A DNA stretch of 64,000 nucleotides from Psammoneis japonica (taxonomy: Eukaryota), in the NCBI GenBank assembly GCA_008632985.1, contig QPGO01000053.1, positions 62,001-126,000 of the forward strand, in the 5' to 3' direction. This document shows positions 2,900 through 64,000 of this stretch, one piece after another. The notes under the pieces were generated by a model. That model did no database searches and was not told the DNA's origin. It saw only the letters and a program-made list of their open reading frames with translations. Position 1 is the stretch's first letter, and every line of letters begins with the position of its first letter. The translations under genes were made by a program, and so were the position numbers.

Positions 2900-5800
2900 T
2901 CTCTGCGACTGGGCTCTAAAGTCACCTGACGAAACTGATGTGGAGATTCGCAAGTGTGGCAAAAACCCCATGAGGACGAGGTGCATTTGCCGCACACGAG
3001 ATAAAGCAGCCAGGGGAAATCACCATAGCCAACAGACACTTTTCCACCGGTGTCCGCAATGTGAAAGCCACAAACAGGGCAATCTTCAAAATGAAGGCAC
3101 GCATTGTGACTGCCCATGCCCAGCAAAGTGCAGGATGAACAGTTGGAACGCGTCACCGTCTGGAAGGACCGCGAGGAGCAAACGCCATCGGCCGCCATTG
3201 TGTGTGTTGCATTCGAGTGGGGTGTGGACATGTTGTGCAAACAGGGTTGCGGGTTGCAAAACCAGCACTTGCGTTGCAGGAAAAGGGTTTTTGCACTTGT
3301 TTTGGGTGGTGGGGGGTTTCGCAACGGCGTTGCGCGTCACGCTTTTGTTGACATAGCGTTGCACATTTATTCCAGGTGAGGGGGGAATGTGGCGCAACGG
3401 CACCACGCATTGATTGCAGGTTGTGGGGAAATGCAAGTTCAAATGGCGTGCATGCCAAGGAGAAATTGCTGGTTGGGGGGGAATGCACACACAAAATTGC
3501 TGGTGCAACAGAAACAGCTTTTCTGGTGCTGTCCATTGCAGGTGAAAACCAGCAGTGCACAATGCCAGAAATGTCCCAAGAGGAGTTTGCTGGTGCAAAC
3601 CCAGCAATGACTACATTGAAGGCAATCTTGTGAGCTGTGTGAGCACTGCCTTTTTTCTCACCAGCTTTGCCCAAATCCTGAGACAAAAAATGCCAACATC
3701 TGTCATTTTGTGCCTTTTGGTGGCTTGTTGTTGTGATGGAATCTTTTTCCTTTGCTGTGACAGCAGGAGCTGCATTGCTCCATGGAGCAGAAATCTCCAC
3801 CTTGACAGGACCCATCCTCTGGCTTTTTTGTTGCTGCCAGGCCTCAAGAAAAAGCAGGTTTTCAGCTCCAACATTTTCTCTGTGCTGGGCTCTTGCAATC
3901 AAATTGACATTGACAGTTGCTTGGCTTTGCCCTCCACCCAAGCACCTTTTGTGTTGCTCAGCACTTCTTCTGCTGCAACGCTTCTGCTCTGGTTGACATT
4001 GGTGCAATCCACCCTCACCTGCTGCATGGCATGACAGTGAGAGTGTGTTGAACAAAGACCAAAACCTTTGCATCACAGAAAAAGGCCAGCCTCAAATTGC
4101 TTGATGAACAAACAATGGCAGCACTGGCTTGAATGAAAAGACATGGCTGTTTGCCACAGCTGAAAGGGAACGGCAGTCTTGACAGTGGGGGGGGGGGGGG
4201 GGGGCTTCAAGAAAAACGGCACTTGCTGTGAGCGAGAGGAGCCCAAAGAGAGTCTCATGTGGCACAAGAACTCAACTTGAGAGTGCCAGCCACAACTTTG
4301 AGAAAATGTGTGGTCTTGAAACTCTGCGATGTGGGCATGAAGCACTGGCCCAAAAACAAACAGCTGTGTGAGCACAGCACAGGGAACTCAGTTTGTTTGT
4401 TTCCTTTTTTGAAGCTGGGGCCTGCAAGAACTCTTTCTTGTGCATTTTTGCAACAAGAAGCCACAAGAAAAAACAGCCATCTTCCTTTTCAGCAAGAAAG
4501 GAGGACTGTTGCACAGGGAGACCCACTCAGCCACTCCTTGCACCAACTGCCCATCCCCACCCTGTCACCCTGTAGTTTTGTTCTGCCTTTGATTGCCCCG
4601 GCAGTGGCTCTCTCTCCTTTTCTCTTGGCGGCATTGCTTCAACATGTTTGCACCAAAGGCATGTGATGGTGCAACAAGCATGGCATGCAGCTCTTGTGCA
4701 ATGGGCAACATGTGAACTCTGACTTGCATTTTCCAAGTGCAGGAGATTGCCCCCATCACTGCTGCAGCATGCCCCATTTCATCCACTGCCCCTCTCTGTC
4801 AGCATGGCAGCAGGGCACTGACAGATGACAACAGGGGTGATCTGGAAAGACTCCTCAAACAAGCACCCCATCACCCAGCACACATGGCAGGCACACAATG
4901 TCCAACCAAAGGCCTTGGTGAGAGGTCAGCACTGGGGCTCCCAATGCCAGAGGAAGATGTCATGTGACAACATGAATGGCACCCTTCTAGCCTTGGACAG
5001 CAAAGTGCTTTGGAGTGTGGTCCTTGTTGACATGATGATCTTAATTGTGAGCTCACCCATCAATGAAAAAATGTCAGCTGGGCCATTTTCAGGGAAGCCA
5101 AGTTCTTGAAGAACATGATGAAGATGCAAAACATGTTTGGCAGCAGCCACAGCACCAGCAGAGAGTGAAACTCCACTCTGGCTTGGGTCTTGCAATGATG
5201 CAAAAAGAGTGCCACCAGCCAATGAGCAACCACACCCAGCATTTGGTTGGTGGCCATGAAGAGCATTGCCGTGTTTGCAAAATTCTGAGCAAACCAAAAG
5301 TTGAGACAAACAGCCAGTGGTCAGAAACACAGAGAAAGTGCTGGACTGATGACATGATGTTTGAATGGGTGAGGGGGCAAGGTCAGGTGCCAGGTTGTTT
5401 CTTGCAGCTGGCATCCCAGTGCTTGGTGCAACAGCAGAAATGGCTGCATGGTGCAACTCTTTTCAAAGTGGAGCAATGGACAGGACCAGGGCCAAAGAAC
5501 GTGGGGAATGCTGTGACAGCAGTGCACTCAATGCAAGTTGATGCATGGTGCTGCACGCGCAACAACAATTGACCAAGAAGGCTCCAGATGAGGCAAAGCC
5601 AAAGGACTTGGAACTTGGACAACTCATTGCAACATTCCAGCAAACTTGAGTCCACAGGAAGTGGTGCAACCTTGTGGTCTTGCATGGGTTTGTCAGTGAA
5701 GCAGGAGTTTTCCACATCCATGTGAAAAAAGTGTGCAACCAGCTCAGCTGCAGGAGCATGCTGCTCAATGAAGCTGCTGCATTGACAAGCATTGTTGCCA

Positions 5801-8260
5801 TTGAATTTGAAGCACAAACAAACTCCCTTGAAAGACAGAACATCTTCAGACAACATGTGAAGTGATTTGCCAAGAAGATTGAAAATGCCAATGGTGGTGG
5901 GGCCTGCTCCCCGCCTGTGCAACCCACTGAAAAATTGTCTCAACCTGTCAGAGAAGCAAAGAGTCACTTGCCCTCAAAAGTCAAAAAGCAGGTGAGCTTG
6001 TCATGAGCGGTGCTCTGAGAAACAACAACATTGTTGCTCCCAACAAGTTGCTGTTAAAATGTTTCTGTCACAAGGCACTGGGTGCAAGACAACCTTGTGG
6101 CAAGCACACCAGCATTGGCAAAACCATGGAGTGGTCAAATCCAGTGACAAAATGGGCCATGCACTGTGCAGCAGACCAGCAGCAGGTGTGTGTGCTTTCT
6201 TTTCAAAATGGTGCACACAAGAAAACCACCATCTTCTGTGCTGTCACACAGGGAGATGTGCTCACATTGTGACACACAGCAAAGAGCCCATGTGGCTGCC
6301 TGCAACCTTCCTCATCCTGCAGCTCCTTTCATCAACTGCCAGTCACAGCCCATGCCAGCTGATGTGTTCACACCAAAGGTGTTCATTTTAAGGTGACATT
6401 CTTGCCCACAATTGTCTGGCATTTGAGTGCCCCGGTGCCCTCCCTTTTTTGGTCCTCAAATTGTCTCACATTTTGTGTGAGTTCAGCTCATTTGCATTGA
6501 GTGCATGTGACACAACAAGCATGACATGTTGTCAACTCTGACTTCCAATTTTCCAAGTGTGGGTCACTTTCATTGCTGCTGCAAAATGGTGTGCCTTGTG
6601 TCATGCACAGCCCCTGTCAGCACAAGGCACAGCACATGCTGGTGGGACACCAATGGACTGCAGAGCAGGAAAATTGGCATGCTGGCAGTCAAAATGTGAG
6701 CAACAAGAAGGCATCCAAAAGATGTCAAGAATGCATTGAGTGCAAGAGTAGAGAGACACTTGGTGAGTGGCACCTCCATGGCTGTGTTTTTGCTGAGATC
6801 AGCTGTGCAGCATCATTTTCAGTCAGTCACCCATGTGCAGTCACCTCCTGAATTCAGTGCAAGCAACATCACACAACAAATTTGCCAGTGCCAGCATTGC
6901 AGTGCTTCAGACAGAGTGCAGACCATTGAGTTGTCCTTGGGGTGCACCACACTGTTGGCACAGAGCAAGGCACATTGAGCAGTCAAGGCAGCTTGAAAAG
7001 CAGAAAATTGCAGTGCTCCCAAATGGGGGCACAGCCAAAGGATTTCTCAGAAGGAGTGTGCAAATGTCCAGCATGCCAACAAGAGGTGTGGCATCAGATT
7101 TTTCTGCGTGCAACTGGCTGGCTTCAAGCCAGCTGAGTGGGGGGGCTGTCTCAGCAAATTCCTGGCAGTGGCCCTGCTCAACGCCATGAGAGACAGAGCA
7201 GCCAGCACCAAGTGAGCAAAACTTTTGTGAGCATCAAAGTGAACAGAGCTGACCTGTGTGCTTGGGGGAATCATGGTGTGTGTCTGGCTGATGACAGTGA
7301 GAAGTGCAGCCCAAGAACACATTTGAAGACATGCAAACAGAGTGTGCCAGCATGCACACCCATTGTGAGCAGCACAAAAATGAGCCCTCACCTGGTTGGA
7401 GCACAATGTGAAGTGGGCTCCTTGTCGGGCAGAGTTGCAACACACCAGGGGATGTCAAATGATGACAGGCAGATGAAGACATGGCAAAACAGTGGTGGGC
7501 AGCAAGACAATGTTGCCCTCTTTGGCAACTGCCCTGCTGGCAGACATCATGTCTTGGTGAAAAGAGAGTGGGGGCAGGCTGCACTGCAGACATTTTGTGA
7601 AACTGACCACAGCACAGTGGCCTGGCGGCACAAAGAACAGACTTGACATTCACCATCAGAAGTGTGAGACCATCTTGCCCAGCAAGTGGATGTTGTCCTT
7701 GGGAGCCTGTGAAGGCAGAAGTGTGTTGGGTTGCTTTTGCACTTCAACAGCAGACAAAAACAATTGTGAGTGCTTGGGCTGTTGGGTGCAATGAAAGGTG
7801 CCCAGATGCCTGTGATGGGAGAGTGGCTTGGGCAGAAGAGGGCGCCACTCTCCTGAAAAATGAAGCGTGGTCTTGGCAAAAACAGCAGTGGGGGCACTCT
7901 CAGTCATGATCTTTGGCACAAGCTTCTTTCAAGAAAAGTCAGTTGCAGCCACCATGGAAGGCCAGCCCAGTGCTGCGCTGCGGCGACAAAGATGAGAGAG
8001 TCAAAGTGCAGTGGAGGCTGGATGAGAGCAAGGCAAGGCCACGGCACGGCACCCTGTTGTTCCACTGCCAGAGACAAATCCTTCCCAAAAAACTGCCAAC
8101 AAGTGAAACTCACTCCTCTCTCCAAACAAACCATTCCTCGGCGAAAGCCCTCCCACACCATCGCATCGGATGGCACAAAAGTGCAGCAACGAGTCTGACA
8201 CAGGCCCAGCCAGATGAACAGACGGAACTGCCCCCAGTGACCGAGACATCGGAGCAAATT
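2900..8260. mobile_element. TpA-depleted block A; unclassified degenerate repeat/TE-derived DNA
   Basis: Near absence of TA, and of CG in the core. Only overlapping Cys/His-rich ORFs are present. A diverged direct repeat lies at ~4670-4810 vs ~6510-6630. I could not recognise a family motif; boundaries are approximate. Confidence 0.5.
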
Positions 8261-10668: not shown

Positions 10669-11799
10669 CAGCATGGTCAGCTGTGGGCATCTCCTCCCCT
10701 CTCTCCTTATTTCTTGCCTAGTTGCACCCATCTGTTATCTGTTGCACATAAATAGAATAAGATTACGCAAGAAGTCTCTATAATCAGACGTTACGCGTCC
10801 CGCATGTGCGTTTCGGCAAAATCGAAGCATCATGATGAATGACAGGCCGACTCACCATCAACAACAGAAACCGAATCAACAGCAACGGGGAGGGTGTCAG
10901 CGATCCATGGATTGCATTAGCCATCGTGAGAGACGCATTGTTGTCCTCACATGTGAGGTTTGCTTGAGTCTATGGCACTGACTGTTAGCTCATCAAGGAT
11001 CATCTGAGATGGAAGCACATTGCAGATGTGTGAGTGGGCAGTGGGCAACAGATAAAAGCCATTTTTGCCCCAGTTCACACATGACACAAACACATCACAC
11101 ACAATGACATGCGTGCATTAAAACACATCATGCTGCCTTGATTGTGCAAGGATCCACAAGCACGGTCAGCCAACGAGCAGCCCAGCCCCTTCATTGTGTG
11201 CAATGCTTCATCCTGCCACAACACGAGTCATTGCATGTGGCTCCCTTCCAATGCCAACCAGCGTGTTGTTGGAGCAACAACTGTCTCTGCTTCTTGGGAT
11301 TGGATGTTTAGAGTTGCAACTCTCCTGCAAAAAAATGCGGCATGCTCTGGCAAGCATCAGAGTCAACAACTGTTTTGGAGGAGTGAGCTGCTGCTCCCAC
11401 TCATCTTCTCCACTTCTTCCGCCCACCAATCTCATCATTTTTCCCAGCACAAAGAACACCCTTGTTGCCACTGTTCTTGTTTTCATTCCCACAACCATGG
11501 CTCTGTTTGTGGCATTGTCTCTGGTGCCATTTCCTTCTGCCAGCAAAAAACTGAATTGAGCCCTCATGACTGAGCCAGTCATCCCCTCAAAGTGGAGGCA
11601 ATGCATGGACTTTCCACACAGGTGAGATTTCACAGCTTTCAACAAATGATCATTCAACTGTCGCTGCATGAGTGCGCTGCACAAATTCAACCTGGATTGA
11701 ATTGAGTCCTTGTTTTAAACAAATGTGTTGAAATGTGCACAAATTTTGACAGTTTTTTGTTGGCACCAGCAAATCCATCTTACACTGGATTTCTGGGCC

Positions 11800-12280
11800 A
11801 TGGGTTCCTGACTGCATCTGCCACCTGCTGTTGCTGCTTTTGTGACTTCCAGGTGTGTGTGCTTTTTGTGCTCCAACACACTCCTGCAATGGCTCACATC
11901 ATCAACTGGGACATTGTTGTCCACACTTGTTGTCTGGCTCCAAATTTTGATGAACAGCAGCCCGCAAAGTGCCCTTGTAAAATGGCCAGCAACTGCAATC
12001 TCCTCATTGTCATTGTTTCAGTTTTCATCCCCAGCTGCAGCTCCATTTGCAGCACCATCTTCAGTGCCTTTTCCTTCTAAATCTGTCTCATCAATTTTCT
12101 GGGACACGGGCTCCTGACTGGATCTGCCACATGCAACATTGCAGCTTTTGCAACGTCCAGGCATGTGCACTCTCTTTGTGCTCCAACACACTCCTCTGCT
12201 GCAATGAATGGCTCATTGTGGGCTGGGGCAGTGTCATTTGCACTCATTGTCTGGCTCCAAATTTAATGAGCAGCAGCTCA
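11800..12280. repeat. Diverged tandem duplication (~306-bp period) at the 3' end of the Copia remnant
   Basis: tcctgactg.atctgccac at ~11805 and ~12112; tgtgctccaacacactcct...tgtctggctccaaattt at ~11867-11947 and ~12177-12264. Confidence 0.7.
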
Positions 12281-15200
12281 TGAAGTGCTGCCTCCATGAA
12301 AGAGCCAGCAAGCACGGTTTCTGTCAGGCAGCACTTTGCAGCAAAGTCACCCTTCAGAGTGCAGTTGGTTGTAAAAATGTGTTGCAAGTTAATGTGCTTG
12401 GCCTGCTTCATGCTGAACATCTGCCTGCTCTTTTTCAATGAGACAGTGCTGTCATTTTCCTGATGGAGACTTGTTTCTTTGATCTTGCCCTTTGCTCTCC
12501 ATGAAGTTCTTCTTGGTCCATGGCAGAGTCAGCATGCCATCATGCACTCCAACTGGTTCACTTTCACATTGAGCTCTCTGCTCTCCACGAAGTTCTTCTC
12601 AGTCCATGGCAGAATTGGCACTCTGTCATGCACTCCAACTGGCTGGCTTTCTGTTAAACTGCTGTGTGCTTGGCTTCTGCTTGGAGAAGCTGCTGATTGT
12701 GATGCCCCCTCTAAAAGTCATCGCTGCTCTCTGGTGGTGTGTCCTCTCATGTTGGGATGCACCACATGTGTGGCACATTAAACTGCCATTTGATTGCATC
12801 CAGCCCACCCACATTGAGCATGAGGGACAGACCCTTTGTGACTTTGACACCTCCTCTTGATTCAAGTGAGTTTCTTCCAGTTGTTGGCCCCAGGTTGCAG
12901 ATCCAGATGTGCAAGAATGATGTCTGGCCATGGTCCATCACAGGTCAGGCAGGTCAGGTTCAGCCATCTGTGAACAAAGGAAGAGCATCTTTTCCATGAT
13001 CAAGTGGAAGATTTCTTGCTTGGTGGCCATGTCCAATGTGCTCAGGGCTCTTTTTTTGTCCATGTCAAGCAAATGGCTCTCTGCTGAAGCAGGGCTTTTC
13101 CCATCCACTCCTGTCAGCGATGAGCAGATGTGCTCATTGACCAGCTGAAACATGCTTCAATGCAGGACAGTGGAGCCAACCAAATGTGCATGACAGGGGC
13201 AGATGTGTCCTCCTTGGATGCACATGATGTCCACTGTGGGCGGCCATCTGCACATCCTTGTCCCATGATGCAGCCACATCACTTCTGTTTCAGGAACACA
13301 AGGTGTCACAGTGCCCTCGTGTTGGCACTCATGGGGGCATCAGTGTGCCTCCATCACCTCTGCTTGCTCCATCCCCTCTCTTTACAATTGCTGCCTCCTT
13401 GCCCCTTTTTTCCAAGTGTCTTGAGCCCTTTTTTCATGGGATGTTGCTGTCTGCAGTTGTTGTTGAGCACAGGTTGAGGTGCAGGTGGTGTCATGATTCT
13501 GGGTTTCCACTGGTGCAAGCTGTGTGTCCTGGTGTGCTCACGCCATTTCTTGTCCATGTCCTTTTTAATGTTGGCCTTGTTGGCTTGGCTTTCTTTTTGT
13601 CTAACCTGCACCGTCTTGGCTCATCTCAGCACTGGCTGTGTTGCCCAGCAGTTCCTGGCTTCTTCCATGAGTTGGTCCTGTGCCCTGCCCCACCCATGAG
13701 CCAGTGGTTTTTGGTCCACTCCTGTGATTTGAGGGTTGCCATTGGATGCAATGTGATCGCTCACTCCTGCATTGATGCTGTTTTGTGAGGTGTCAGTCAG
13801 GTTGTCCAGGGTCTTGGCATCCAGTTGAAATGGCTTTGTGGTGGTCTCATTGTCAATGTCTGATCTGCAAATGATGGAAGCATCATGTCCTCAACATTGG
13901 GGTTTTCATCAGGGTCACAGTCGCCATCATTGCTGTTGTCATCAAGAGCAAGGTTTGTGGCTCAAGTCCTCCTGCTCATTTTTTTCAAAGAATTTTCAGA
14001 AATTGTGTCATTGATGGGATCACCATTGCAGCCCTGAAAGCTGCTCCCCTGTTGTGCCTTCTTGCTGCACCTTGCAATGTGATGGCAAACCTGATTGATC
14101 ATGACATCAGGAGTTGGCAGTGCCATCCAAAGAGCTTGGGCTTTTGGCCAGTGCATCTCCCCCCATCTCCACCTGCCTTGGGCATTGCCAGTTGGCTGCA
14201 GAGCAATTGCACCAATTGCATGGATGACCACGCTGTTGTCATGGTCTTCATGTTGTGACAGTGCAGTTGTGGTGTGCAATTTCTGCTGTGTGCAGCCAGC
14301 ACTCAAGTTAACTCAAACCTCCGCTGGCCCTGCTCAAATGGTCATTGGAGTCCATGCATGATCTTGCATGCCTTTTTCTGCACTTGGTTGGTGCTTTCAA
14401 GCAGTGTTTTTGTCTGCTGGTCAGACATGCACTCAACCATGGCTGAATGTGTGACCTCATCCAGCACGACAACACTTCCACCCTTGACCTGGGGGGGGGG
14501 GGGCTTTTTGTCAACTGTCTTGCCCTCAGTCAACCCAATGTTGGGGCCAAAGATGTGCTTTGAGGTGGTCATGTCTTGTGCTGTCACCAAGCAGTTTGTG
14601 ATCTCCTTGTTTTGAACAACACCATGAACTGGCCCTGTCTCATGCTGGGTCTGCCCATGGTCTTCTGGATCATTCTTGCAAGCTGCTCTTGCCAGACGGC
14701 CCATGCTGAGCACTGGGCCTTGTTTCTAGTGACCATCTTTGTGCCAGCATGACTGCTGGTCCCCATTGGCAGTGCACCATGGTGTCACAGAATTGCCAGC
14801 CTGTTGGCAACAGCTTGGGCTCTTGGGCCCTGCCTTTGTCTGTGTGCATGACTAAAGGCATTCAAGTCCTGTCCCCATGAGTCATGCGGTGCTTTTCTTT
14901 GACCTTGACCAGAGATGGCATGTTTGCAATTTAAACAGAGCAGTGTCACACTTTTCCACATCCAGGTGGAGTGCCCCAAGGGTTGGCACTGGTGATGCTG
15001 GCTGGTGACAGCAGTGCGGGGATGTCCAGCCAGCATCAATTTAACTTGCAAACATTGCTGAGCAAGCTGGCATTGACAAATGCATTGCATGTAGACTGCC
15101 TGTCCAGCAGCTTCCAGTTTGGGTCAACAGCACCATTGGATTGTCAGTGCTGGATGTGCAGACAGTCAGCTGACCCTCTTTTCTTGGCCTCCTTGGCAAC

Positions 15201-15900
15201 CACACAGAGTTGGAAGTTGCTGTTCTCTGATTTGCCACCATTGTTTGCAGCTTCCATGAAATTTGCTGTTTCTTGCTCATGTGCTGAACCAGCTGTTGTG
15301 TTGACATGCTTCTGTTCAGACAACTCCCCATTGTGTCATTCTCCAGACTGTCTGAGGCATGGCAGCCTTTCTTGCCACATTTGAGCACACAGTGTTTTTT
15401 GTGGATCAAACCCCCCCCGCCCCCCCCACCTTTCATTGTTGGAATTGTCACTGATGCTGGTGAGTGCTGCGCCATTGTCTCTTGTTGGCACAGAGTGCAG
15501 CATCTTGGGATGGTCTCACCACCAGTTGGACAACAACCATGCTGCGCAGGCTTGTGCCATGGCATTTGGGCATTTGCTGTTGTTCCCAGTTGAGCAACTG
15601 TTTTTGTTGGGAGCTCAATGCATCACACCACTGGGGCTCCCAGATGTCCTTCTCTGGCTTCCACCCAAGCAATCTTGTGCTCAGCTGCAGTTGTGAGCTC
15701 TCTGGCACAATTCCCTGTTGCAGAGTCCATGAAGAAGCCAATGGTTCACCTGGAGTTCATCTGTTGCAATGAAGCAAACAGAAAGGACAGCTCCCATCTT
15801 GGGCACAATGGGTTCCTTTGTAACCCCACAAAATGGAAAGATCATGTTTTCTGCCTGCAAACAGCCACAACTTTGCAACAGCATGGAACAAGTCTGGGAA
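11800..15900 (-). mobile_element. Degenerate, internally deleted Ty1/Copia (CoDi-like) LTR retrotransposon inside TpA-depleted block B (~10.8-16.6 kb)
   Basis: Motif remnants in Copia order on the minus strand: gag knuckle KCGKKGCHASD (~15350-15385); protease PNWKLLDRQSTCNAF (~15080-15125); ITNCLVTAQDMTTSKHIFGPNIGLTEGKTV; HEDHDNS..GAIALQPTGNAQG; VFLKQK..GQGCADGR; EIFHLIMEKMLFL; RNase H AKHINLQHIFTT; terminal QECVG. The RT core appears deleted. LTRs were not resolved. Confidence 0.85.
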
Positions 15901-31765: not shown

Positions 31766-31789
31766 TAATATGGTGTGTGTATGGTGAAG

Positions 31790-42100: not shown

Positions 42101-42169
42101 CAAAACTCCAGATCTGGCCATTGTCGCAAGAAGTTTTTGCCAGCCATGGCAACAACAAGCTCAGCCCCA

Positions 42170-43219: not shown

Positions 43220-43578
43220 ACTTGGTGTGGATGCATGATGAACACACCACACATCAAAGCATGATGCTTCTGTGAACATGACTTCATTCTTTCGTCACAA
43301 GGCTCTGCTCGAGGTGTCGTTCATTTTAACAATGCGCAAAAGAAAGTTCGACACCGAGAGGCGTCCTTCTCTTGAGAACCGCACACACTGTAGACTAGAA
43401 CTTTCACGGGTCGAGGCGGAACGATAGCTGTTTGGCTCCTCTATCCTCAGCAACGGATTGTCTCTAATCCTACCTTCTACCTAGAGAGCGGTTCGAAAAT
43501 GGCAATGAGTGCACTGAAAGCGATTTTCCAAAGCCTCCAACAAGCCTTGCCGCTAATTCTACACCTGCATATTCATTT

Positions 43579-52809: not shown

Positions 52810-53520
52810 GGCGGCAGCACTTCTTGGCCATTGATGTCATCGCACCAGCAGCTCCCGCGCTTCCTCACCTGGTTCACCTGTCCCTGAAAACCCATTAAAT
52901 AAGGTTCACCTCAGCAGCATGCGGGACAAGCTTCTTGGTCGCTCTGCACAATCCGCCCCCAGCTCCAATGTCATTGACGCCATCAACCAAGCTGGCCTCT
53001 TCCTTCTCCCATTCACATTCAACCACCTGGGCAGCATTGGATGCCATTTTCACATTTTCTTCTCCAGCTCCTCCTCTTCACCATCTGCCTCCGTCCCACC
53101 CCTTCCTCCCAAGCCACCCTGGACACACCCATCTTCCTTCTCCAACTCTCAAGCATCCTTCTCTGCCTCAACTGTCTCACCACTTGCCCCTTCCGACCTC
53201 CTCACCCACTCCAACATGGCCTGGAAACTGCTCTCCCCAGACCGTTTTGGCTCATCCTGCCATGCTGCCACACCCCAACTCTGGGCCTCCCAAATCCTCA
53301 GCCTCAACTTTGGCTGTGCTCTCTCCAACCATCTCTCTTTGCACCAAGATCAGCTGCTTCACCACCCCACCGGTGCTCTTGCTGACAGCTCTTCACCTCA
53401 GCCGTCTGTCTGCACCTTGGGCCCACACCCTTTTTCTCTCCATCCCCTTGCACGCTTCAAGCACCTCTCCCACCACACATTTCACCACACCAACCTCTTC
53501 CAACACCACAGTCACTGATT
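52810..53520 (+). mobile_element. 3' fragment of a non-LTR retrotransposon with restriction-like endonuclease (CRE-like), mutated
   Basis: FLAIDV, MRDKLLGR, LFLLPFTFNHLGSIG and TPQLWASQILSLN resemble the RLE C-terminus of CRE-type elements. Confidence 0.5.
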
Positions 53521-55019
53521 GTTCTAAAACTGGCACACGTGCAACACAACGCACAACTCTGGTGACAAAAGTGGGCGAGCATCATTTTCTCTCTGTGGGA
53601 CAGCCTGAGACCATGTCCTGATGCTGTGAGACTAGAAAGATGAACTGAAAAAAAGGAGAATGATTGGGGTTTGGCACAACCCCCCCAACAAAAAAAGAAC
53701 TCAAACGCACTGGAAAGTCACTGTGGGTTGAGTTTTTGCCTTGTGCACACATTGCCACAATGGAGCTGGGGAGTGACTTTTGTCTCTGGCGCCACACAAA
53801 AGAGCATGTTCTCTCACACAGGGGCGGTGTTGAGGTGGAGAGCAAGCACAACACATGCAGCTGCTGTGTGTGCCAGTCTGATCAAAGAAGAAAAAGAAGA
53901 AGAAGAAGCACTGTGTGAGCTGAGCTGTGGAGGAACAACGTCAGTTTTTTTATCTGGCAGAGCAGTGGAGAGAGGCAGATGCGGGATGCTGCTTTTTTGT
54001 TTTTTGCCACTTCCACCAACAACCTGTCAAGTGGTCTGTCATCATTTAGCTGAGCATGTTCTCTCTGTGCTGGTTACAAGGCAAACACCAGACACACAGG
54101 GGTTGCACACAAAGGTCTTGCCCATGAGGTGTGTGTGTGAGGGCCAAGGTGTGCACAAAAAGAGCAACAGCTTGAGCCACCAATTTCTGCACTGCACCAC
54201 TTGCAGCAGGCATGGGAAGCAGGACACCAGCACATGCTGCTTTTTTTGTGGGTGCCACCAAGAGAAAGCACGCACATTGTTTGCACCCCCTCTCCAAAGA
54301 GTGGCACCCATTTGCACCTCAAAGCACCGGCCTCTCTCTCTTCTTCTGCACCCCCCACATCTGCAGTTGCACAAGTTCTCATTTCTTTGGGTGCACAAAA
54401 TGCCAATCCAATCAGTCTGTCTGCATTGCTGATGAGGGGGCAGTGTCTGCCGTGATGCACAATTTCTGTGGTGCCATGCTGCACTCTGCAGAGAGCACCA
54501 AAGACACACATTCACTGGGCAGATCAAGTGGCCTCAGCATCAATGAAAAGCCTTACATGCTTGTCTCTCTGTGGTGCACTCCCTGCAGAGTTGGCGCCCC
54601 TCCAGACTGCAGACAACAAGCACTGAAGGCAGCCTTGCAGAGTTTTTCCTGCTCCATCAGAGCACGCAATGTGGTGATCATCACACATCTTTTCATTGTG
54701 ATTTTCACTCCTTTCACAGACAAATTTTTTACAGTTTCAAACCTTGTCAGTTGTGCAGCTGGTGACAACATGTCGACTGTGACAGATTGACATTTTCATG
54801 CCACAGGATCAGAACCCCCCCTTCCCATGAGGAAAATTGTTTCACTGTGAAACAGGGGCACGTTTTCCCCATGAGAGTGCCCGCCCTCTGTCCCTGCAAA
54901 ACCTGCAAATTAAAATCATTTGCATTGTGCCATGAACATTCCATTTTGTTTTCACATTTAAACCAAATGATGCTGATGGAGACAACACCCCAGAGTCTGC
55001 AGCAGCAGCTGCAGCTCAC

Positions 55020-55500
55020 TTTCTTCAAGTGCCGCTGCTGGCAGCCACCTTGTTCATTGCCAAAAAAGTGCAGAACCAACATTGTGAGAGCACAATGTGG
55101 ATGAACTGACACCACCAACAGGAACGACAACATGGGCTCACCGGTGCATCTGGTGCAGCTGATTCTGGAACAGGCGTGTTTGCAGCAGGAGCTGCTGCTT
55201 TGTCATTTGAAGTGCCGCTGCTCCATTCCACCTCATTGTGAGAGCATCACATGGATGAACCAACATGACCCACAGGAGCGGCAACATGGACATGCCAGTG
55301 CATCCGACACCACTGATTCTGGAGCAGGCAAGTTTGCAGCAGAAGTGCTGTTGCTCCTCTGATCCACCTTGTTCATTGCCAAAAAGTGTGGAGCATGTTG
55401 TGAGAGCACAATGTGGATGAACTAACATGAACTGCAGCACACACTTGCCAGTGTGTCAGTGCATCTGGCGCCGCTGATTCCGGAGCAATGTGGATGCCGG
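55020..55500. repeat. Three diverged ~140-180-bp tandem units
   Basis: Recurring ccacct...ttgtgagagca...tggatgaac...gtgcatc...ctgattc.gga at ~55046, ~55228 and ~55363. Confidence 0.75.
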
Positions 55501-55599
55501 TGTGCGGTGCAAGACATCAAGCACCCAGCTCCACCCCTCTGCAACTGAAAACACAGAAAGAAAGCATGTGAGCAAGCAAAACACATCTTAAGTGCCACA

Positions 55600-55925
55600 G
55601 AACACACTTGCTGGGACAGCCATGGGAACAAGCACTGCCTGCATGTGCGCCACACTGTGCAAGGTGCTGCGTGAACAACAAAGTCATGCAGCAATGGCTG
55701 AGTTCGCCCCGCACCTCCTGTGCTGTGGACGGTTCGTCGATGACATGTTTGGAGCATGGACCACAAACAGCAGAGAGACTTGGGAAGCCTTTAAAAATGA
55801 GCCCAACAACTCAGGCAACCTCCAATGGGTTGCCTCCCCACTCTCTGCCTCTGCAGTCTTTCTAGATCTGGACACAGAAATTGGAGAAGACGGATGCAAC
55901 GCAAGCAAACATGTCAAAAACAAGT
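55600..55925 (+). mobile_element. Penelope-like reverse transcriptase fragment, Tyr-to-Cys mutated
   Basis: GTAMGTSTACMCATLC...LLCCGRFVDDMFGAW...GNLQW...SAVFLDL matches the PLE RT pattern GTAMG...Y.R(Y/F)IDD...FLDL. Confidence 0.8.
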
Positions 55926-58361
55926 GAAGCTCTTTTTGTGCACACTTTTTTGAAGAGTGTCACATGTGGCAAAGAACTTTTCATGCATGTGATTCTGAGA
56001 GCTGCAGGAACAAGCACTGCCTGCAGCATTTCTGGATCTGGATGTAGAAATTGGAGAAGACGGGTGTGTTGTTGTTGTCAGCATTGGGAGATTTCGGGGT
56101 CCAAGTGATTGAAGGAGTGGGATGCACAGAAATGTCCAAATGTCCCAATCTTTGCCTCAAGGGTGAAGACAAAGACTGGCCAAATCTTCAGTCACAAGCC
56201 TACAACCCAATGGAGAAACGCAAATGGGATCTGTTGCATTGGGACAAACGACATGTGTCATGGAGAAGGCATGCTTGTTTCATCATGGCGAATTGTCAAG
56301 TGCATGCATTTCACCTCAGATCTGTGTGTGAGACCACACTCATGTAGATGCAAAGTTCATGTTTTGGCAAAGTGTGGCCAGTGACTGCAACTGTGCTGGG
56401 GTGTCCTTTGAACAGACCATTCATCGCACCCATCGACACGATGTTGCTGTTCTTTGCATTTCTTTCCCAGCTGCTGGTTGGCGAATGTGTCAAAAACCAA
56501 TGAACCTCTTTGTGCACATGCCTTGTTTGAACAGTGTCATTCATGGCAACTTGTGATGATTTTGGATGCAAAACTCTGACATGCATGATCACACCAATGC
56601 TGCAGAAAAGCAAGTCTGTGATGTGCGTGCACACAACACACAACAACACGCCAGCAGCTCAGCACTCTGGATGCAGCAGATTCGTGACAGCACACTCGCG
56701 ATCACGAAATTCAAGCTGCACCCAAATAAAACCCCATCTTGACCAACCAGAAGGATGGCAGGTTTCACCACATGTTGAGCTGCTGTTGTCGTCCAATGGG
56801 GCAAAGTCTTTCACCACCATGGCTGGTTGTCAATTTGCAGATTTGCGACCACACGCAGGATCCGCGTGAATCACAACAGCACACACTCTCATTTTTCAAA
56901 CTTTGGGGAGAGGGTGCACTGTCATGAAGTGTGCAGAAAATTGCACATGTAAAACATGTGCTGAAAATGCTGTAGACCAATGGGCTGCACAAATCTGGGA
57001 AACATTGTGAAGAAAAATGAAGGTGGGTCACGTGCGTGCGTGAAGTTGCTGCAGACTGCACATGTGCAAAGACACATGCACGTGAGTGAGGAGGACCAAG
57101 TTAAAACCAAGTTAAAATTGATTGCTGTCAAAAGGAAACCAAACCATGCACCACAAAAAACAGATTTTGACCCCAATTAAATCAAACATTGTGCGTGCAT
57201 TTGATTGAAGCTTGTGCAAAAAAAGTCAATGAGAAATCAGATGAAATGCAAAAAACAGCTTCATTTTGTTGAGCACTTTTGCTGGCATTTTTAAATTCTG
57301 CTTGTTGACAATTTTGACGGCGCACATTAAAAATTTTACAAAGGAAAGTGGAAACCACTGCATTGTGGCCTCTGATGTCTTTCCCCATCTGTCGTCCATG
57401 TGTCCATGCCCGTGCTTTCTGGGCAGCCAAAAAACAGTGTTGATGTCATCTGCAGAATGAGTGCTTTCTAATGGCAGCATTTTTGTTGTCACACCTCAAG
57501 CCCATCCAAATCGGCATTGATGTTGTGCTGACAGTGCACCTGACGGCCTGTTCCAGCTCCAGGTGCTCCGCTTTTCATCACGCTAGATTTTCTACGCAGT
57601 TTTCAGTGCCAGACATTTTTGTCTCCACCCAGCAGAGCTCGCACTTTTTGGCTTTGTGCAAACATTGATTGTTTTGATGATGTGACATGTTTGTGATGTT
57701 GGTGCTCATGTGCAACAACTGAGGTGCATTGTGCGTGACAGGAAGAATCATGTCAGTTGGCATTAAATGTTTTTCTGGCAATGCGTGGAACAATGCTGAC
57801 TTCTACGAACACGTGCCGTCCACCCAACACACACCAGCCATGACGCAGCACACCGCTGTCACCACTCCACAACCCCCTCTTCACCCTTGCGGTTGTGTGG
57901 AACCGCCTGTTCCTTTCATTTCAAAGTTGCGTCATTGTTGTTGCAGTGCGATTGCGGCTCTAAAGAGTTGCTGTTGTTGTGGGTGACACCATCTCTTTGC
58001 ACTCTCTCGTTTCGAATTCGGCAAGTCGTTCTGTCGCATTTTTTTTTACGCTTCACCGTGCGCCTGCATTTTTCTGGTTGCTTCTCACGCATCGTTTTAT
58101 GGTTGTTTTGCACCAGGGCCTTTGGAACTTCTACAAAACTCAAGTGCTCGCCCGAGTGTTCTCTGAGTGACAGTTTCCACTGGAACAAACTTGTCTTGGT
58201 TTGTTTTCACTGTGACACTTGCTGTTTGTGCTTTTCAGCATCTGGAACTGCCTCAGAGGCTGCCTCTGTTCATCCGCATCACTTTCGCGGTAACTGATGT
58301 TGGCCCCCTCTCTGGAGTGCATTTGTCACACAAACAGGAGTGCAAAAGCAGTGCATTCGCC

Positions 58362-61300
58362 ATGGACACGTTGGCCAAAGTGGCCTCCCAACAGCGTCCC
58401 GTTGGTGGCAGTTCTCCTCAAGCTGACGATGACTCTTCCAGCACGTTGAAGGTTTCCTTTTGCGTCCAGCATTGCGCAGAGGCACTCGCGGAACATTGCC
58501 CACCGCAGGGCAAAGCCAAAACTTGGCACACTGTGCCTCTCCAAGATGCAGTTGATCCCCTTGAGTGCCCTCAAGGTCTTGTAGATTTGAGCATCTTGAC
58601 CACAGAAGATCGTGGAAAAAAGAAGACGAGCCCTCTCTTTCATGTTCATCACAAGAATGGTTTGGATGGTTTCAACAGTGCCAAAACATGGAACATGTTC
58701 CGCAACACTGTTGTCGATTGGTTTTGTGAAAAATTTAACTCCGAGAATCGACCGCAACCAAACCAATGCATCAAGGACAAGAACCAGCACCTCTTGATGT
58801 TGGTTGTGGTGCCATCAGGAATGTTGATGAGGGACGCCGTGAAGGACAAGCAAAACATTGCTGCTGTTTTGATGTGCCGTGTCAAGACAAACATTGGCCT
58901 GCTTGTTGATTACGTCCGTGTGACAGAGTCTCCGGTTGTGTCAGTTGGGGCGGGTGATGAGAGTCAATCGATCGCACCATCGAGTCGAGGTGCATGTCCT
59001 TTTTTGATTGGACTTGCCCAAGCCATTTGCTGTGGTGTTGTCAAGAAGATGGATGCATGTCTTCACATTGTCAGAAGACTTTGAAGTCTTGTCACATGGG
59101 AGTGATGGGTTTTGAGGACATCACGGACACCATGAGTGATCGTTCCGATCTGGCGGATGTCCGCAAGCACTGGGACTGGGATGATCTCATGATCATGATC
59201 AAGGCAACACTGTTGCCCTGTGTGCAAAGGAGAGGATTGCTCCAATGAGCTCTGCAATTGTTTTGGCATTGCCTCATTCCAGCGCCGAGTGTCAGAACAT
59301 TGCAACAGAAATCCACAAGGACGAATGCCATTGGGAGGAACCGCTTGTTGAAGGAGGATGCATTGCTGATCATTCATGCATTGCCAAGCGCCAATTCCAC
59401 TTGGCATCTTTGGTCAACATTCAAAACCTGGAATCATGCGATGATGAAAAGTCGACCCAAGATTTAAAGACGCATGCGTGGCTGCCTTTTGGCGAGGTCG
59501 TGTTTCAAAGTTGGTGGCGAATTAAGTCTCCAAAGGGGGTGAAGAACAATTTTGAAATGTTGGCTTTGAAGGGGTTGGACGTCAAGTTCAAATGTGAAAC
59601 AAGATCTCCCGTTCTGTCTGCAAAACGGCACTGGGGTTCAATCTGCAACCATCACTCTGTTCCAAACAAAATCGCTCAGAGGAAGCAGGTGGATGAAAAG
59701 CCATGTCGAAAACCACGCATCAGCTGCAAGAAGTTGAAGAAGCCCATTGTGGATCACAGCGACGATTGTGTTTTTCATGACGAGTGTCACAAAAGGGAGA
59801 AGCTTGAACAGTCAGATGATGACATGCAGGAAGATCCCTGCATTCCCGAACTTCCCACCAACGCACCATGCAAAGTGCTCATGAGTTGCACGAGTGGCTG
59901 CCGGAGGATTTTCTCATTTGGGCCATTTGAACCCGATGACAGACTGCCATCCGAGGCCTTGTTTGACATCATTGCAGGTTGGTGGTGCAACCATGCATTG
60001 CGGATTGCCTCTGGTGGTGAATGCAGAGGCAGCACTTGTCCACCAGACGAGTGGTGCAGGCCTTTCAAGCCGCAATGACACTCCAAGTTAGTGGAGGCCA
60101 TCACCGAAGACAAACAAATGATTGAAGTCCACTTCCCTGCTGGACCAAGCAGGAAGGATTGTTTCAGAGAGCCGCTTGCTCACCTTGCTGATTGATGCAA
60201 GGCAGCTCCTGGACTTGCATGGCACAAGTTTTGCAGAAGGATTCGTTGCCATCGTTGCATGCATCACGCCAGTGCCCGTGATGCAGTGTTGAAGGAAGAG
60301 GTGGAGGAGGAGGAAGAGGAAGAGGGGAAGGAGGGCACAGAAGAGACGGATGACCTGCAAAAGGCCGAGGCTGGCACTGCAAGGTTGCAACTGCGAGACA
60401 AAAACCAGGAGGAGGAAGATGGGGCCATGGATCAATTGGCTGAGGAAGAGGAGGAAGATGGGGCCATGGATCAATCGGCTGAGGAAGAGGAGGAAGATGG
60501 GGCCATGGATCAATCAGCTGAAGAAGAGGAGGAAGATGGGGCCATGGATCAATCAGCTGAGGAAGAGGAGGAAGATGGGGCAACGGATCAATCGACTGAG
60601 GAAGAGGAGGAAGAGGAGGAAGATGATGGTGTGCAAGACGAAATCCAGGAGGAGCAAGATCCAGAGGCAACAGAGGAGGAGGAAGATTCAGAGGCAACTG
60701 AGGATGAGGAGGAAGATGAAGTCAAGGATGATGTTTGGATGTTGAATCCAAACTTCAAGAGGGGGAAAGCCAAGTCTGCAAAAGAGAAGAGGGAGAAATC
60801 CAAGACTGCCAAAGAGAAGAGGGAGAAAGGCAAGTCTCCAAAAGAGAAGAGGGGAGAAAGCCAAGGCTGCAAAAGAGAAGAGGAAGAAAGCCCCGGCTGC
60901 AGAAGAGAAGCAGGAGACAGTGGGAGACGCTGGATGCAGACATGAGCATGAGACCTTGAAATTAACAACTGGAGTGCACAAGGATGAGGATCTCATTGGC
61001 CTTTGTAGCTCTGTCCCGAAACCAAGGGCAAAAGGAGACACTTCATGGTGTCGGTTGACCAAAGCACAGCGACACCAAGAAGAAAGGGATCGACTTGAGC
61101 ATGAGCACGAAGATGCTCAAGTGATGTTGCAGGTTAAAAAACTCATTTGGATTGATCCAAGTAAATGGAACAGCCGGCGTCAGCATCCTGGCGATTCCGA
61201 AGGAGACGTTCCTCACTTGTTTGGTTGCTTTGAAGGGAAAAACAAGGGCGTCATGTTGTGCAAACCATGGTTTGACGCACGATGCAATGAAATGAACGGC

Positions 61301-62133
61301 CATCCCATGAACACGTGCACGAGCCTCATTGTGCGTGCCAAACACAAACCAAACGTTCCCCAGCAACTCAATCGAAAATGCAGGGACGAGATTAAGAACA
61401 AGGTGGAATCGATTTGCAACCCACCACAGATTGCCAAACTGAAGAGATTGACTGAAGCAGAGATTCAAAAACTTCCACCTGTTGGGCGTGGAGCTGATTT
61501 CATTGGTTGCAGCTTGGAGGGGAACCATCCTGTGTGTGCAACCCTGGATTGGGCTGAGTGCAATTTTGAGTTTCGGTTTCCAGATGAGTGGAAAGATTTG
61601 AAAGAATTGAAGCCATCGGATGGTCACCACTCCTTGCGGAAGGAAACGTGTTGATGCCATCGAACAGCAACTTGCCGACGAGCAGTCCACCCGTGAAATT
61701 CCTGCAAGGACAAAACGACACTTGCATTTTTTCCTCCCTGGCCAGTGTTCTTGATCATGCTGGCGACGTGGAAATGAGAGACTGCATTGCTTCTCACATT
61801 CAAACATCTGCCAACTGTGCTGACACTGACAACAAGCGCATGTTGTTTGCAAAGAACATGTTGAACGGTCGTTTGAAGGGAAAATTCCCGCCTGAGAACT
61901 CAAACATGAAGTTTTGCGGCAGTGTGGATCGAACGATTTCCCTTGCAGCAGGTGGTGAATTTGACGTGACGACCTGCAATGATGACTTCATGACTTTGTG
62001 CCATCCTGTGAACAACCACTGCATTGCCTTGCACCATGGATGGATCTTTGATTCCAACCACCCTTTTGCATTGCCAGCAAAGGACATCAAGTGTTTCAAT
62101 TGTGGTGTCTTGGGAACGAGGAACATGAGGTGA
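58362..62133 (+). pseudogene. Disrupted long cargo ORF of the element: unknown N-terminus, acidic and basic repeats, C-terminal putative Cys-protease-like module
   Basis: Consecutive same-strand ORF pieces 58362-59084, 59245-60078, 60259-60945, 60920-61654 and 61588-62133. The last contains QGQNDTCIFSSLAS...NHCIA...WIFDSN. Confidence 0.5.
60407..60625 (+). repeat. Five 39-bp coding tandem repeats (EEEEEDGAMDQSA); ~30-bp Lys/Glu repeats follow at ~60770-60910
   Basis: gatgggg at 60418, 60457, 60496, 60535 and 60574. Units differ by CG/TG/CA at one site (caatcggct, caattggct, caatcagct). Confidence 0.92.
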
Positions 62134-62272
62134 AATGCGTGGTGAAAAAGCATCTGCAACAAGTGTTCATGGTGCACCAGTTCGAACTTCCCAGGGCGGT
62201 GCAGCAGAAGTTGCGTGCAAAAAGGAAAGCTTTTGTGTTGGATGGTCAATCTAGTTGCACAACATTGCCATG

Positions 62273-63937
62273 TCATTTGTCAGAATTGTTGCTGTCACTG
62301 TCCCCTGCTGTGCTCTCATCATCCTCCACAGTGTCTTCCATGTCGTCATTCTCTCCCCCCCACTCACCAGTTTCGATGTCTTGTTCCTCCACCTCGTCTG
62401 AACAGTCCTCAAAACAATCCATTGCCTCCCGCTGTTGGATGGCATCCAGAATTCCTTCATGCTCATCATCACTCAAATGACGTGGATGAAGAAGTGAAGC
62501 CTCATTCCTGTTGCACGTGCTTGGCAGTTCCAGATTGGCTGATGGTTCGTTGAGCTCAATGTTGGCAATTGCAATTTGCTTGAGCAACACTCTTGTCTTA
62601 CATTCCTCAGCATCACCGGGAGTGCACCATCCTCTGGCCCATGGAACAGGGTTAAGATGCATTCCCTTGCAAACCCATTCACCGGCCTTGACAGTTGTGG
62701 GTGGGTCAAACTCTTTCCAAACCTCGTCCTCCTGTGCTTTGTGGGGGAGTTCATCCCATTGCAGCAGATAGAATCCCTCCTCAGATTCACAAGACAAAGT
62801 GGCATGGCTGTTTGGAACAATTTCCTTGGCCATTTCCTCAGCAAGGAAGTCCAACACAGATTTGTGAACCAACTGCACCTCGTTGGCATCACTCTCATCT
62901 GTTTGAATCACCTGACACACTTGCCAATCGTTCAGTCCCTCAAAGATGGGCCACAGTTTGCAAGCTCGGTTGCCACCTGCACATCGTGGCTGCTCTGTTG
63001 GCTCAACATTTTTAACCCAAGGCCATTTCAGCTGATCCAGGCAGGCTTCACAAGCACAAGGAATTCTTCGCATCGCAACCCAACCAATGGGGAAAAGAAG
63101 TTCAAATCGGAAATGGTGCAAGGCTCCAATGCCACAATGGCGCATGCACACTTGCGCCAATCCAATCAACTTGACTTTGATTGAAGAGCCAAGAACTTCA
63201 TCAGCTTCCTGCAGACAATGCACCCTTTGCATTGACTTTCGAAGGGATTCCCTCTTGGCATGTTTTCTGTCACCAACTGCGCCGAAAGCATTCTTGTTCT
63301 TTGTGAGCATTTTGCAACATTCCTTTGCATGACTGTGTGCGGCTACAACACTGTTGTCATCCATGACCAAAGCTTCAGGTCTAATTTTCTTGTCCTTGTC
63401 ATTGACTCCTGCAACAGTTGTGGACTGCATTTCTCGATGTGCGAGTGATTTGATGCAGGCTCCAATGCCATCAACCTCTCCTTTGCCATGTCCAGTTGCT
63501 CCAATGGCACGGTCAAACACAATGTTGCATTTGTGCACAAAGACAGACAACAAGCACAGTGCCAAAGCACATCGGCATTGTTTGGCACAACCATCAGTGT
63601 GATCCCAAATCACAAGCCACACCTTGTGCAGGTTGCAGTTTTTTAACCAGGTGACAAACTTTTCCAAGTGAGCATTGGTGGTGGTGGCATCTTGCTTGGA
63701 AGAGTCAGAGAGATGCGCATGATGTGTTTTCTGAAGCTTGTTGTCAACCATTGCATCACAAACTCTTCCTTTGATTGACAATGTTTGGTTGTTGCCACAA
63801 TGGTTGCCCTGAACTTGTTTGTTGAACTCTGCCTTCTGATGCTCGGAGCAGTCATGAGACGTGAACAGGCTGTTGGGTGTTGACTCAAATGCTTTGCGAT
63901 GCATTTCCATGCAATGATTTTTCCCAAGAATGACCAC
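62273..63937 (-). pseudogene. Sola-like (Sola2-type) DDD transposase C-terminal part; frame open but Tyr-stripped
   Basis: HDCSEH (DY/FxE-like), LSDSSKQDA, WDHTDGCAKQCRC (DGxxxQY-like), GHGKGEVDGIG and RRIPCACEAC. One Tyr in 554 aa. Confidence 0.7.
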
Positions 63938-64000
63938 GTGGGGAAGGTGGTGGCAGAGCTTCCCTAAACTTGGAATGCAGTGCTCTTTTGTAAAGACACC

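Follow-up and report, generated by a model that had tools for sequence, protein, structure and literature searches.

Regionally confined conversion of TpA to TpG and CpA, with partly uncoupled loss of CpG, in a contig of the diatom Psammoneis japonica

What removes nearly every TpA dinucleotide from some stretches of a diatom contig and leaves the genes between them as they were? The question is raised by 64,000 nucleotides (nt) of Psammoneis japonica DNA (assembly GCA_008632985.1, contig QPGO01000053.1, positions 62,001 to 126,000 of the forward strand), here called the window and numbered from its first base. A first-pass annotation had described sharply bounded blocks, about half of the window, that were almost free of TpA (TA) and rich in TpG (TG) and CpA (CA), and had read them as DNA in which TA was changed in place to TG or CA while the genes were spared. 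Both parts of that reading stand. It needs correcting in that the affected DNA undergoes C-to-T change as well.

Segmentation on TA alone assigned 30,282 nt, 47.3% of the window, to TA-poor DNA, in agreement with the earlier estimate, and the TA counts made by eye (7 in 62273-63937, 1665 nt; 3 in 12601-13200) proved exact. The segmentation returned eight segments, which make seven blocks once 52942-57141 and 57487-64000 are joined. A second segmentation, on TA plus CpG (CG), gave nine blocks totaling 29,272 nt and a remainder of 34,728 nt, and a 500-nt profile of the window was run alongside both. The observed/expected ratio (o/e) of TA was 0.02 to 0.08 per block in the TA-only segmentation, compared with 0.58 in the intervening genes. 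Only 95 TA sites are found in the nine blocks (o/e 0.05) versus 1385 outside them (o/e 0.58), while TG and CA reach o/e values of 1.80 and 1.82 in the blocks and 1.22 each outside. The longest TA-free runs measure 1820, 1515, and 1034 nt in the blocks and at most 328 nt in the concatenated non-block DNA.

Block 1 (2981..8144; TA o/e 0.03, CG 0.17) retains CpG in its left 0.5 kb. It is followed by block 2 (11121..16497; TA 0.07, CG 0.12), block 3 (31930..34531; TA 0.03, CG 0.15), and block 4 (37005..39430; TA 0.02, CG 0.16), the last of which is matched exactly by a contig of a sequencing run at single-copy depth. Block 5 (41619..43245; TA 0.03, CG 0.43) holds a high-copy repeat at 42004-42670 and then a dead paralog of an FG-GAP gene. 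Beyond block 6 (48133..50504; TA 0.03, CG 0.19), block 7 (52942..64000) runs past the end of the window with a TA o/e of 0.07 to 0.08 throughout and CpG o/e values of 0.09 to 0.79; it contains a reverse transcriptase (RT)-like fragment and a copy of a two-gene transposon. Block edges are sharp, with the transition completed within about 10 to 50 nt. The right edge of block 1 lies ~130 nt ahead of the start of a sulfatase open reading frame (ORF; 8389), block 3 starts ~130 nt upstream of the start codon (31765) of a minus-strand His_Phos_2 gene, and another block edge is ~300 nt from the start of ORF 39969-41330.

The same blocks have lost CpG, a loss unmentioned in the first-pass annotation and less complete than that of TA. 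CpG o/e ranges from 0.09 to 0.49 among them; 402 CG sites are found in the nine blocks (o/e 0.22) versus 1820 outside (o/e 0.93). The G+C content is the same in blocks and non-blocks (about 0.49), and pyrimidine-purine steps add up to 24.3% in blocks and 24.5% in non-blocks. This equality is expected if the only changes are transitions at CG and TA that end in TG or CA. Conversions of this kind (GTA to GCA or TAC to TGC, for instance) also account for an excess of the dinucleotide GC (1.26) and a deficit of AT (0.83) in the blocks.

The two losses are partly uncoupled, and in both directions. Loss of TA extends over CpG-retaining DNA at 3001-3500, 57.7-58.2 kb, and 61-62 kb, and the intervals 3001-3500 (TA 0.15, CG 0.74) and 58001-58500 (TA 0.14, CG 0.79) are TA-poor yet retain much of their CpG. 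Among relatives of the block elements, P0019 has lost its tyrosines (Tyr) while arginine (Arg) still makes up 8.0% of its residues, which indicates that TpA was lost without loss of CpG. Conversely, six relatives (L017, L026, L033, L034, L036, and L054) have CG o/e values of ≤0.30 but TA o/e values of ≥0.44. The CpG loss is probably a second process, the decay of 5-methylcytosine (5mC). CpG depletion with an excess of TpG and CpA, the mark of such decay, is present in the blocks; the evidence for methylation comes from the literature on Phaeodactylum, in which loss of DNMT5a removes DNA methylation and de-represses young transposons (PMC9998398). RID-related DNMT4 enzymes, whose function is unknown, occur in many diatoms according to the same article. 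Decay of 5mC in methylated transposons accounts for the CpG-to-TpG/CpA part of the pattern but cannot remove TpA. The surviving CpG sites are context dependent too, from GCGC at 0.64 of its density outside the blocks down to TCGA at 0.16, so that CpG decay appears slowest in G+C-rich flanks.

The TpA change affects both strands equally, as the TG:CA ratio is between 0.90 and 1.13 in each of the nine blocks. It also depends on the flanking bases, which we assessed on the 94 block TA sites with both flanks and 1384 such sites outside. TTAA accounts for 32 of the 94 survivors but only 48 of the 1384 outside sites (Fisher p 5e-20). Ranked by density in blocks relative to outside, TTAA is the most spared (0.79), followed by CTAA/TTAG (0.19), CTAG (0.13), and GTAA/TTAC (0.11). 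Lower values belong to CTAC/GTAG (0.07), ATAA/TTAT (0.03), ATAT and ATAG/CTAT (~0.01 each), GTAC (0.012), and ATAC/GTAT (0). When 55 kb from 19 unmutated relatives served as an independent baseline, the ranking was unchanged. The rule that emerges is that RTAY (R, purine; Y, pyrimidine) is erased and TTAA is almost spared. The two flanks act about independently, with protection by the 5' flank in the order T > C > G > A, and in five of six asymmetric contexts the product found in excess fits a choice made by the base 3' of the target A (T, C > G > A). At Tyr codons, cases were too few for the preceding base to distinguish an effect at -2 from one at +1. At one rare survivor, the TA at 48756 (TTTACAA), the sole covering contig of sequencing run X1 reads TG at full depth. 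This single case may reflect either a recent change of TA to TG or a difference between strains.

The direction of the change was read from a gene and its dead copy. The intact FG-GAP repeat gene (45474..47621, plus strand) has ordinary TA content and served as the reference for polarizing changes. It lies 4.4 kb from the dead paralog fragment in block 5 (42783..43194, plus strand), which is 77% identical to 47169-47596 and matches PF14312 with 24.7 bits. None of the 15 TA sites of the intact gene is kept in the dead copy: five read TG, five read CA, and five read otherwise. This loss is in line with the reading of the first-pass annotation, with 10 of 15 lost sites ending in TG or CA. In comparison, 11 of 31 CG sites are kept and 16 have become TG or CA, and dinucleotides other than TA and CG are kept at 45 to 85%. 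The pair includes a near-identical tract of 144 columns with 13 differences, probably a recent conversion tract, in which both TA sites have become TG, 3 of 11 CG sites have become TG, and the remaining 118 sites carry 8 differences. These proportions indicate that TpA changes fastest of all classes.

Conserved protein positions in block 7 record the same direction. A transposase-like ORF of 575 codons (62276..64000, minus strand) has 21 homologs with E values down to 1e-94. Thirteen alignment columns hold Tyr in ≥60% of the homologs; the window copy has cysteine (Cys) at six of them, histidine (His) at four, leucine, phenylalanine, and Tyr at one each, and its Cys and His residues are encoded by TGY and CAY codons. 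Overall, Tyr makes up 0.2% of this ORF compared to a mean of 3.6% in the homologs. Arg is affected less completely, with 9 of 18 conserved residues kept, three changed to His, and two changed to glutamine (Gln). In an RT-fold ORF fragment (55592..55924, plus strand), part of a repeat at ~50 times the unique word depth, the four conserved Tyr columns read Cys, Cys, Cys, and His. The three motifs in which Cys or His had been suspected to replace Tyr were located at 55637-55744 (plus strand) and 63569-63595 (minus strand). Relatives carry Tyr at positions that read Cys or His in the window copy.

The identity of these elements was assessed from their folds. The RT-fold fragment has 286 relatives at E values of ≤0.001. 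The model of its family, with a predicted local distance difference test (pLDDT) score of 85.3, resembles the reverse transcriptases of telomerase, group II introns, retrons, and LINE-1, and the best structural match is TERT (3du5_A, E value of 1.2e-10). The suspected RT is thereby supported by fold and not by Pfam, which matched none of eight long homologs. The model of the transposase-like family (pLDDT 78.8) points to an RNase H-like core: it aligns with retroviral integrase and DDE transposase cores with Z scores of 8.0 to 8.7 over 137 to 171 residues, a range that the structure tool itself calls common, and Foldseek gave no match at an E value of ≤0.001. Searches of PDB sequences with profiles of the two families gave no matches at an E value of ≤1. 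In the P0002 model, the C-terminal part (residues 507 to 627) aligns weakly with the BAH chromatin-reader domain of EBS (Z score of 7.0, 84 residues), which, if true, would be notable for a transposase.

The transposase-like ORF is accompanied by a second, convergent ORF of the same element (61588..62130, plus strand) with conserved Cys, His, and WIFDSN-like motifs. This convergent arrangement recurs in five environmental loci (L013, L014, L023, L039, and L049), which suggests a two-gene mobile element without a Pfam family. The Tyr columns of the second ORF, drawn from low-identity alignments, gave no clear Cys/His pattern (one Cys in five columns).

Relatives of the transposase-like protein are not equally poor in TA, nor do they have Cys or His fixed at these positions. 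The TA o/e is ≥0.44 at 62 of 63 metagenome loci, and the relatives carry Tyr, so that the reading of the first-pass annotation withstands the comparison that it had itself proposed. The remaining locus, L047 (a sediment metagenome contig of 1182 nt), has a TA o/e of 0.19 and a CG o/e of 0.03, the sole double loss among the 63. Of 745 segments of 600 nt in these loci, only 5 fall below a TA o/e of 0.2, three of them in L047 and two in a stretch of L056 with 70% G+C. The composition of L047 suggests that the same process occurs in one or more other organisms or populations. The Tyr-to-Cys/His pattern is also seen in P0019 and P0020 and in 4 of 145 relatives of the RT-fold family. These proteins differ in which sites became Cys and which became His, which points to independent events. 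A cluster lookup of five Tyr-poor relatives returned none that bears a name.

Copy number varies among the affected regions. Word depth in run X1 is ~60 to 67 over the genes and over blocks 4 and 6 but 1,200 to 9,000 over 42004-43337, 52676-53342, and 54677-56000, which indicates that high-copy families make up some of the blocks, whereas others have by now become single-copy relics. The interval 42004-42670, a very high-copy short repeat beside the dead FG-GAP copy, has a summed X1 word depth of ~9,150 compared to ~60 for unique DNA.

Among known systems, repeat-induced point mutation (RIP) of Neurospora and other Ascomycota is alike in that transitions in a dinucleotide context, irreversible and confined to regions, destroy transposons and may hide their frames from similarity searches. 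The chemistry and the trigger differ. RIP changes C to T mainly at CpA, creates TpA, and is set off by duplication; here, TpA is destroyed, CpA and TpG are enriched 1.8-fold, and the G+C content is unchanged. A tandem duplication of 584 bp, 95.5% identical (51019..52187, plus strand), lies in ordinary DNA and has not been hypermutated. Its copies keep 19 and 17 TA and 36 and 36 CG, and their 26 differences are not centered on TA. Each copy has an open frame (194 and 164 amino acids) and may be coding. This untouched duplication, although a single case, and the single-copy depth of blocks 4 and 6 argue against RIP-like sensing of repeats.

A much closer likeness is found in the chlorarachniophyte Bigelowiella natans (Rhizaria), in which 231 of 302 nuclear mutations in mutation accumulation lines fell in integrated giant-virus and virophage regions (Mettrop et al. 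2026, bioRxiv 10.64898/2026.01.13.699255). All but one of the 231 (230) were A-to-G or T-to-C changes, all at TpA, at a rate of ~6e-7 per site per generation, some 1000-fold above background, and only in some lines. TpA-poor clusters and coding sequences rich in CpA and TpG were enriched in DDE and RT domains, and the authors suggest that an ADAT2-like deaminase acts on adenine in DNA and serves in defense. The claim of the first-pass annotation that no description of such a process was known therefore no longer holds, since this preprint measured the same spectrum. Full-text literature searches found no report of TpA hypermutation in diatoms, and the preprint was the sole description found. 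The process is thus already in print for another lineage and not categorically new; the window, from a diatom (Stramenopiles), adds a second lineage of the SAR group (Stramenopiles, Alveolata, and Rhizaria), at saturation.

The correspondence with B. natans covers the change of TpA to TpG and CpA, seen here in the paralog and in the conserved Tyr columns, an A:T-to-G:C direction at these sites, and confinement to discrete regions while the rest, here the intervening genes, is ordinary. It also covers the mobile nature of the target, to which the RT fold, the weaker transposase-like core, and the two-gene arrangement attest; no viral gene was recognized in the affected DNA. The differences are as follows. 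The nucleocytoplasmic large DNA virus region described in the preprint is partly depleted (Rho TpA of 0.45), whereas TA o/e is 0.02 to 0.08 over 47% of the 64-kb window. CpG is lost here (16 of 31 CG sites of the FG-GAP gene read TG or CA in the paralog), whereas neither CpG nor diatoms are mentioned in the preprint text, which reports that the G:C-to-A:T rate is not raised. A dead host paralog has been struck here, unlike in the description given for B. natans, and the RTAY/TTAA rule has no counterpart in the main text of the preprint, figures and supplements apart. Finally, a mutation rate was measured in B. natans, and the window offers the end state.

These observations show which way the change runs, its specificity for one dinucleotide, its symmetry between strands, its confinement to certain regions, and its context rule. 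To explain them, we propose that silent DNA, transposon relics and the dead gene copy among it, undergoes a host-driven TpA transition: on either strand, G replaces the A of 5'-TA-3', and TA ends as TG or CA. A deaminase of the TadA/ADAT2 type, drawn to silent chromatin, would turn the adenine into hypoxanthine, which is read as G when the DNA is copied. RTAY would be preferred, most simply because of a pyrimidine 3' of the target A, and TTAA would be nearly spared. The process would run near to completion and halt within tens of bases of an edge, ~130 to 300 nt from neighboring start codons. In the same DNA, methylated CpG would decay more slowly to TpG and CpA by the ordinary 5mC route, and the two processes together would leave TG and CA as the sole pyrimidine-purine steps. 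Elements would be permanently inactivated through Tyr-to-Cys/His and Arg-to-His/Gln replacements, with frames left open because TA-to-TG/CA changes create no new stop codon.

As a package, TpA-specific adenine deamination directed at silent chromatin plus independent decay of methylated CpG is the explanation we consider probable. Its parts differ in strength. We lean toward chromatin state as the targeting signal and regard it as rather likely that the process equals the one measured in B. natans, while the assignment of the enzyme as an adenine deaminase is tentative, somewhat short of an even judgment.

Several points weigh against this explanation. A-to-G at TpA is indistinguishable from T-to-C on the other strand, so that sequence alone cannot prove adenine chemistry. 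The polarity of change comes from one paralog pair at 77% identity and from distant relatives at 28 to 51% identity, and in that pair 5 of the 15 TA sites have changed by something other than a single transition (AA at two; TT, GA, and CT at one each). The context rule is drawn from survivors and presumes an ancestral tetranucleotide content like that of the baselines, and the product asymmetry is confounded by CpG decay, which yields the same products. A single process of dual specificity could replace the two that we invoke, and the B. natans case may differ with respect to CpG. Lastly, the only runs that cover the window, none of them listed as RNA, come from one sample and one study, and X1 may be the assembly's own source, its library type unrecorded.

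Thymine modification survives best among the other explanations, although we regard it as unlikely. A TET/JBP-type dioxygenase or other enzyme would modify T in the TpA of silent DNA, for example, to 5-hydroxymethyluracil (5hmU), which would mispair with G or be misrepaired and so yield T-to-C. As T-to-C at TpA is the complement of A-to-G, all compositional results fit this route equally well. 5hmU in dinoflagellates favors TpA. These algae, also members of the SAR group, have a TET/JBP homolog that makes 5hmU at repeat-enriched loci, where the modification is linked to transposon silencing (PMC11572971). The point of likeness is that these algae mark repeats chemically at A:T pairs. In the excerpted text of that article, 5hmU is treated as an epigenetic mark, and neither a mutational consequence nor a conversion of T to C is reported. 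Furthermore, 5hmU pairs with A, so that a near-complete change to C would need an extra step. We know of no report of 5hmU in diatoms, although no search combining the two terms was made.

A single deaminase acting on both A in TpA and C in CpG would be slightly less likely still. TpA and CpG are depleted in the same blocks, each giving TG on the deaminated strand, and the ADAT2 enzymes of amphioxus and Trypanosoma act on A and C in DNA according to the B. natans preprint (bioRxiv 10.64898/2026.01.13.699255). A shared enzyme fits poorly with the uncoupling of the losses in both directions and with CpG o/e values that, across the nine blocks, span 0.09 to 0.48 against a steady 0.02 to 0.09 for TA, and the CpG methylation of diatom transposons suffices to explain the CpG loss (PMC9998398).

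Error-prone patch repair, which the first-pass annotation had offered as a candidate, would also join the two losses: mismatches left by 5mC deamination (T:G, U:G) would recruit a Pol eta-like polymerase that misinserts opposite T at WA (W, A or T), so that CpG and TpA are lost together. The WA-to-WG signature of Pol eta is established for somatic hypermutation, and the sharing of blocks by the two losses is what such a route predicts. The signature is not borne out here, since AA is not depleted (o/e of 1.19 in blocks versus 1.11 outside) even though TA is down more than 10-fold (0.05 versus 0.58). Nor do TA-free stretches with nearly normal CpG (3001-3500, 58001-58500, and 61001-62000), the loss of Tyr in P0019 with its Arg retained at 8.0%, or the six relatives that lost CpG and not TpA fit a coupled origin, and the TpA process of B. 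natans proceeds without a raised G:C-to-A:T rate (bioRxiv 10.64898/2026.01.13.699255). We consider this route improbable, more so than a dual deaminase.

Explanations that dispense with mutation in place are close to excluded. Joint suppression of UpA and CpG is reported for many RNA viruses and cytoplasmic RNAs (PMC3829696), and an element lineage under selection on its RNA could avoid both dinucleotides. ADAR-like editing of RNA before reverse transcription would be another route, as ADAR favors a 5' U (bioRxiv 10.64898/2026.01.13.699255). Neither accounts for a dead host gene copy affected beside its intact paralog, for the destruction of conserved and presumably functional Tyr residues in two unrelated protein families, or for 62 of 63 relatives that are not TA-poor. 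Editing of the ADAR type would mark one strand, in elements with an RNA intermediate only, and favor UAG, its optimum. Here, the strands are equal, a single ORF shows Tyr-to-Cys at six and Tyr-to-His at four columns, a DNA transposon-like element is affected too, and UAG is not a preferred context. As innate defenses that place dense transitions in a dinucleotide context on mobile or viral nucleic acid, APOBEC3 (on complementary DNA) and ADAR (on double-stranded RNA) resemble the process seen here, but they act on replication intermediates with strand asymmetry, whereas the edges in the window follow chromosomal position. Still less probable, and likewise close to excluded, is a sequencing or assembly artifact, such as systematic miscalling of modified bases: dense modification can bias long-read base calls, but X1 k-mer contigs match the blocks with 0 to 2 differing letters over 1.4 to 3.2 kb at the same depth as the genes (~60 to 67), and independently mutated relatives lie on other public contigs.

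The genes between the blocks are diatom genes by their sequence. They are ordinary and intron-poor and encode a sulfatase, a mitochondrial carrier, TMEM65, a cytochrome b5 protein, a ferric reductase, a bestrophin, and the FG-GAP protein. One encodes a pyrenoid-shell protein of diatom type (PF25192, E value of 8e-67), whose best public relatives are only 55% identical; those relatives whose names were looked up belong to Coscinodiscus wailesii and Stephanopyxis turris, both centric diatoms. The protein collection thus has no close relative of the diatom in the window. In run X2, contigs leave out 40360-40464 and 44299-44404, which lie inside the minus-strand ORFs 39969-41330 and 43579-44319; these intervals are probably introns and X2 probably an RNA library, though it is not recorded as such. 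Over 36001-56000, X2 depth is zero across 37335-39335, 48007-50674, and 52009-56000 while genes are covered, an observation that we do not count as evidence of silence.

ORFs inside the blocks have a different character. Pfam searches with block ORFs (15, plus 150 of the 161 that have at least 90 amino acids) found no transposon domain; none of the 165 matched a Pfam transposon family, and the sole match above the cutoff was FG-GAP_2 in the dead paralog. Comparison of the window with itself by BLAST gave 11 internal matches in total and no pairs of long terminal repeats or terminal inverted repeats. Since the conversion of TA to TG or CA makes no stop codon and deletes TAA and TAG in all frames, the 575-codon frame remains intact and overlapping ORFs crowd the blocks. 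Long ORFs in such DNA can be spurious because TGA is the sole stop left. A run of plus-strand ORFs (58167-61651) contains one Tyr in total. Within it, a Glu-rich repeat region (60196-60942, plus strand) encodes a EEEEEDGAMDQSAE-type repeat, includes a direct-repeat pair (60409-60625), and sits in a TA-free stretch with mixed CpG retention.

The window extends the description of B. natans in that CpG is lost as well, a host pseudogene is among the victims, a tandem duplication has drawn no response, and a context rule is seen. The survivor rule, with RTAY erased and TTAA spared, constitutes a biochemical fingerprint that can be compared with the B. natans mutations and with candidate deaminases. 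Elements in this end state escape Pfam, and repeat annotation and dating of transposable elements in diatoms probably undercount such relics. If the process is the same as that in B. natans, then this mode of genome defense would extend to two or more SAR lineages, one of them the ecologically dominant diatoms. It is conceivable, though we would not yet call it likely, that a chromatin-guided DNA adenine-editing defense is ancient and widespread in the SAR group and common to diatoms and chlorarachniophytes. Such a defense would act at 5'-T-A-Y with TTAA near-immune, would be aimed by the silent state rather than by repetition or foreignness, would consume dead host genes, and together with 5mC decay would lead to an end state free of TA and CG. 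Work on base editing would have an interest in any natural enzyme acting on A in double-stranded DNA of chromosomes, and an ancient adenine-editing system of this kind would mirror fungal RIP and amount to a DNA adenine base editor that occurs in nature.

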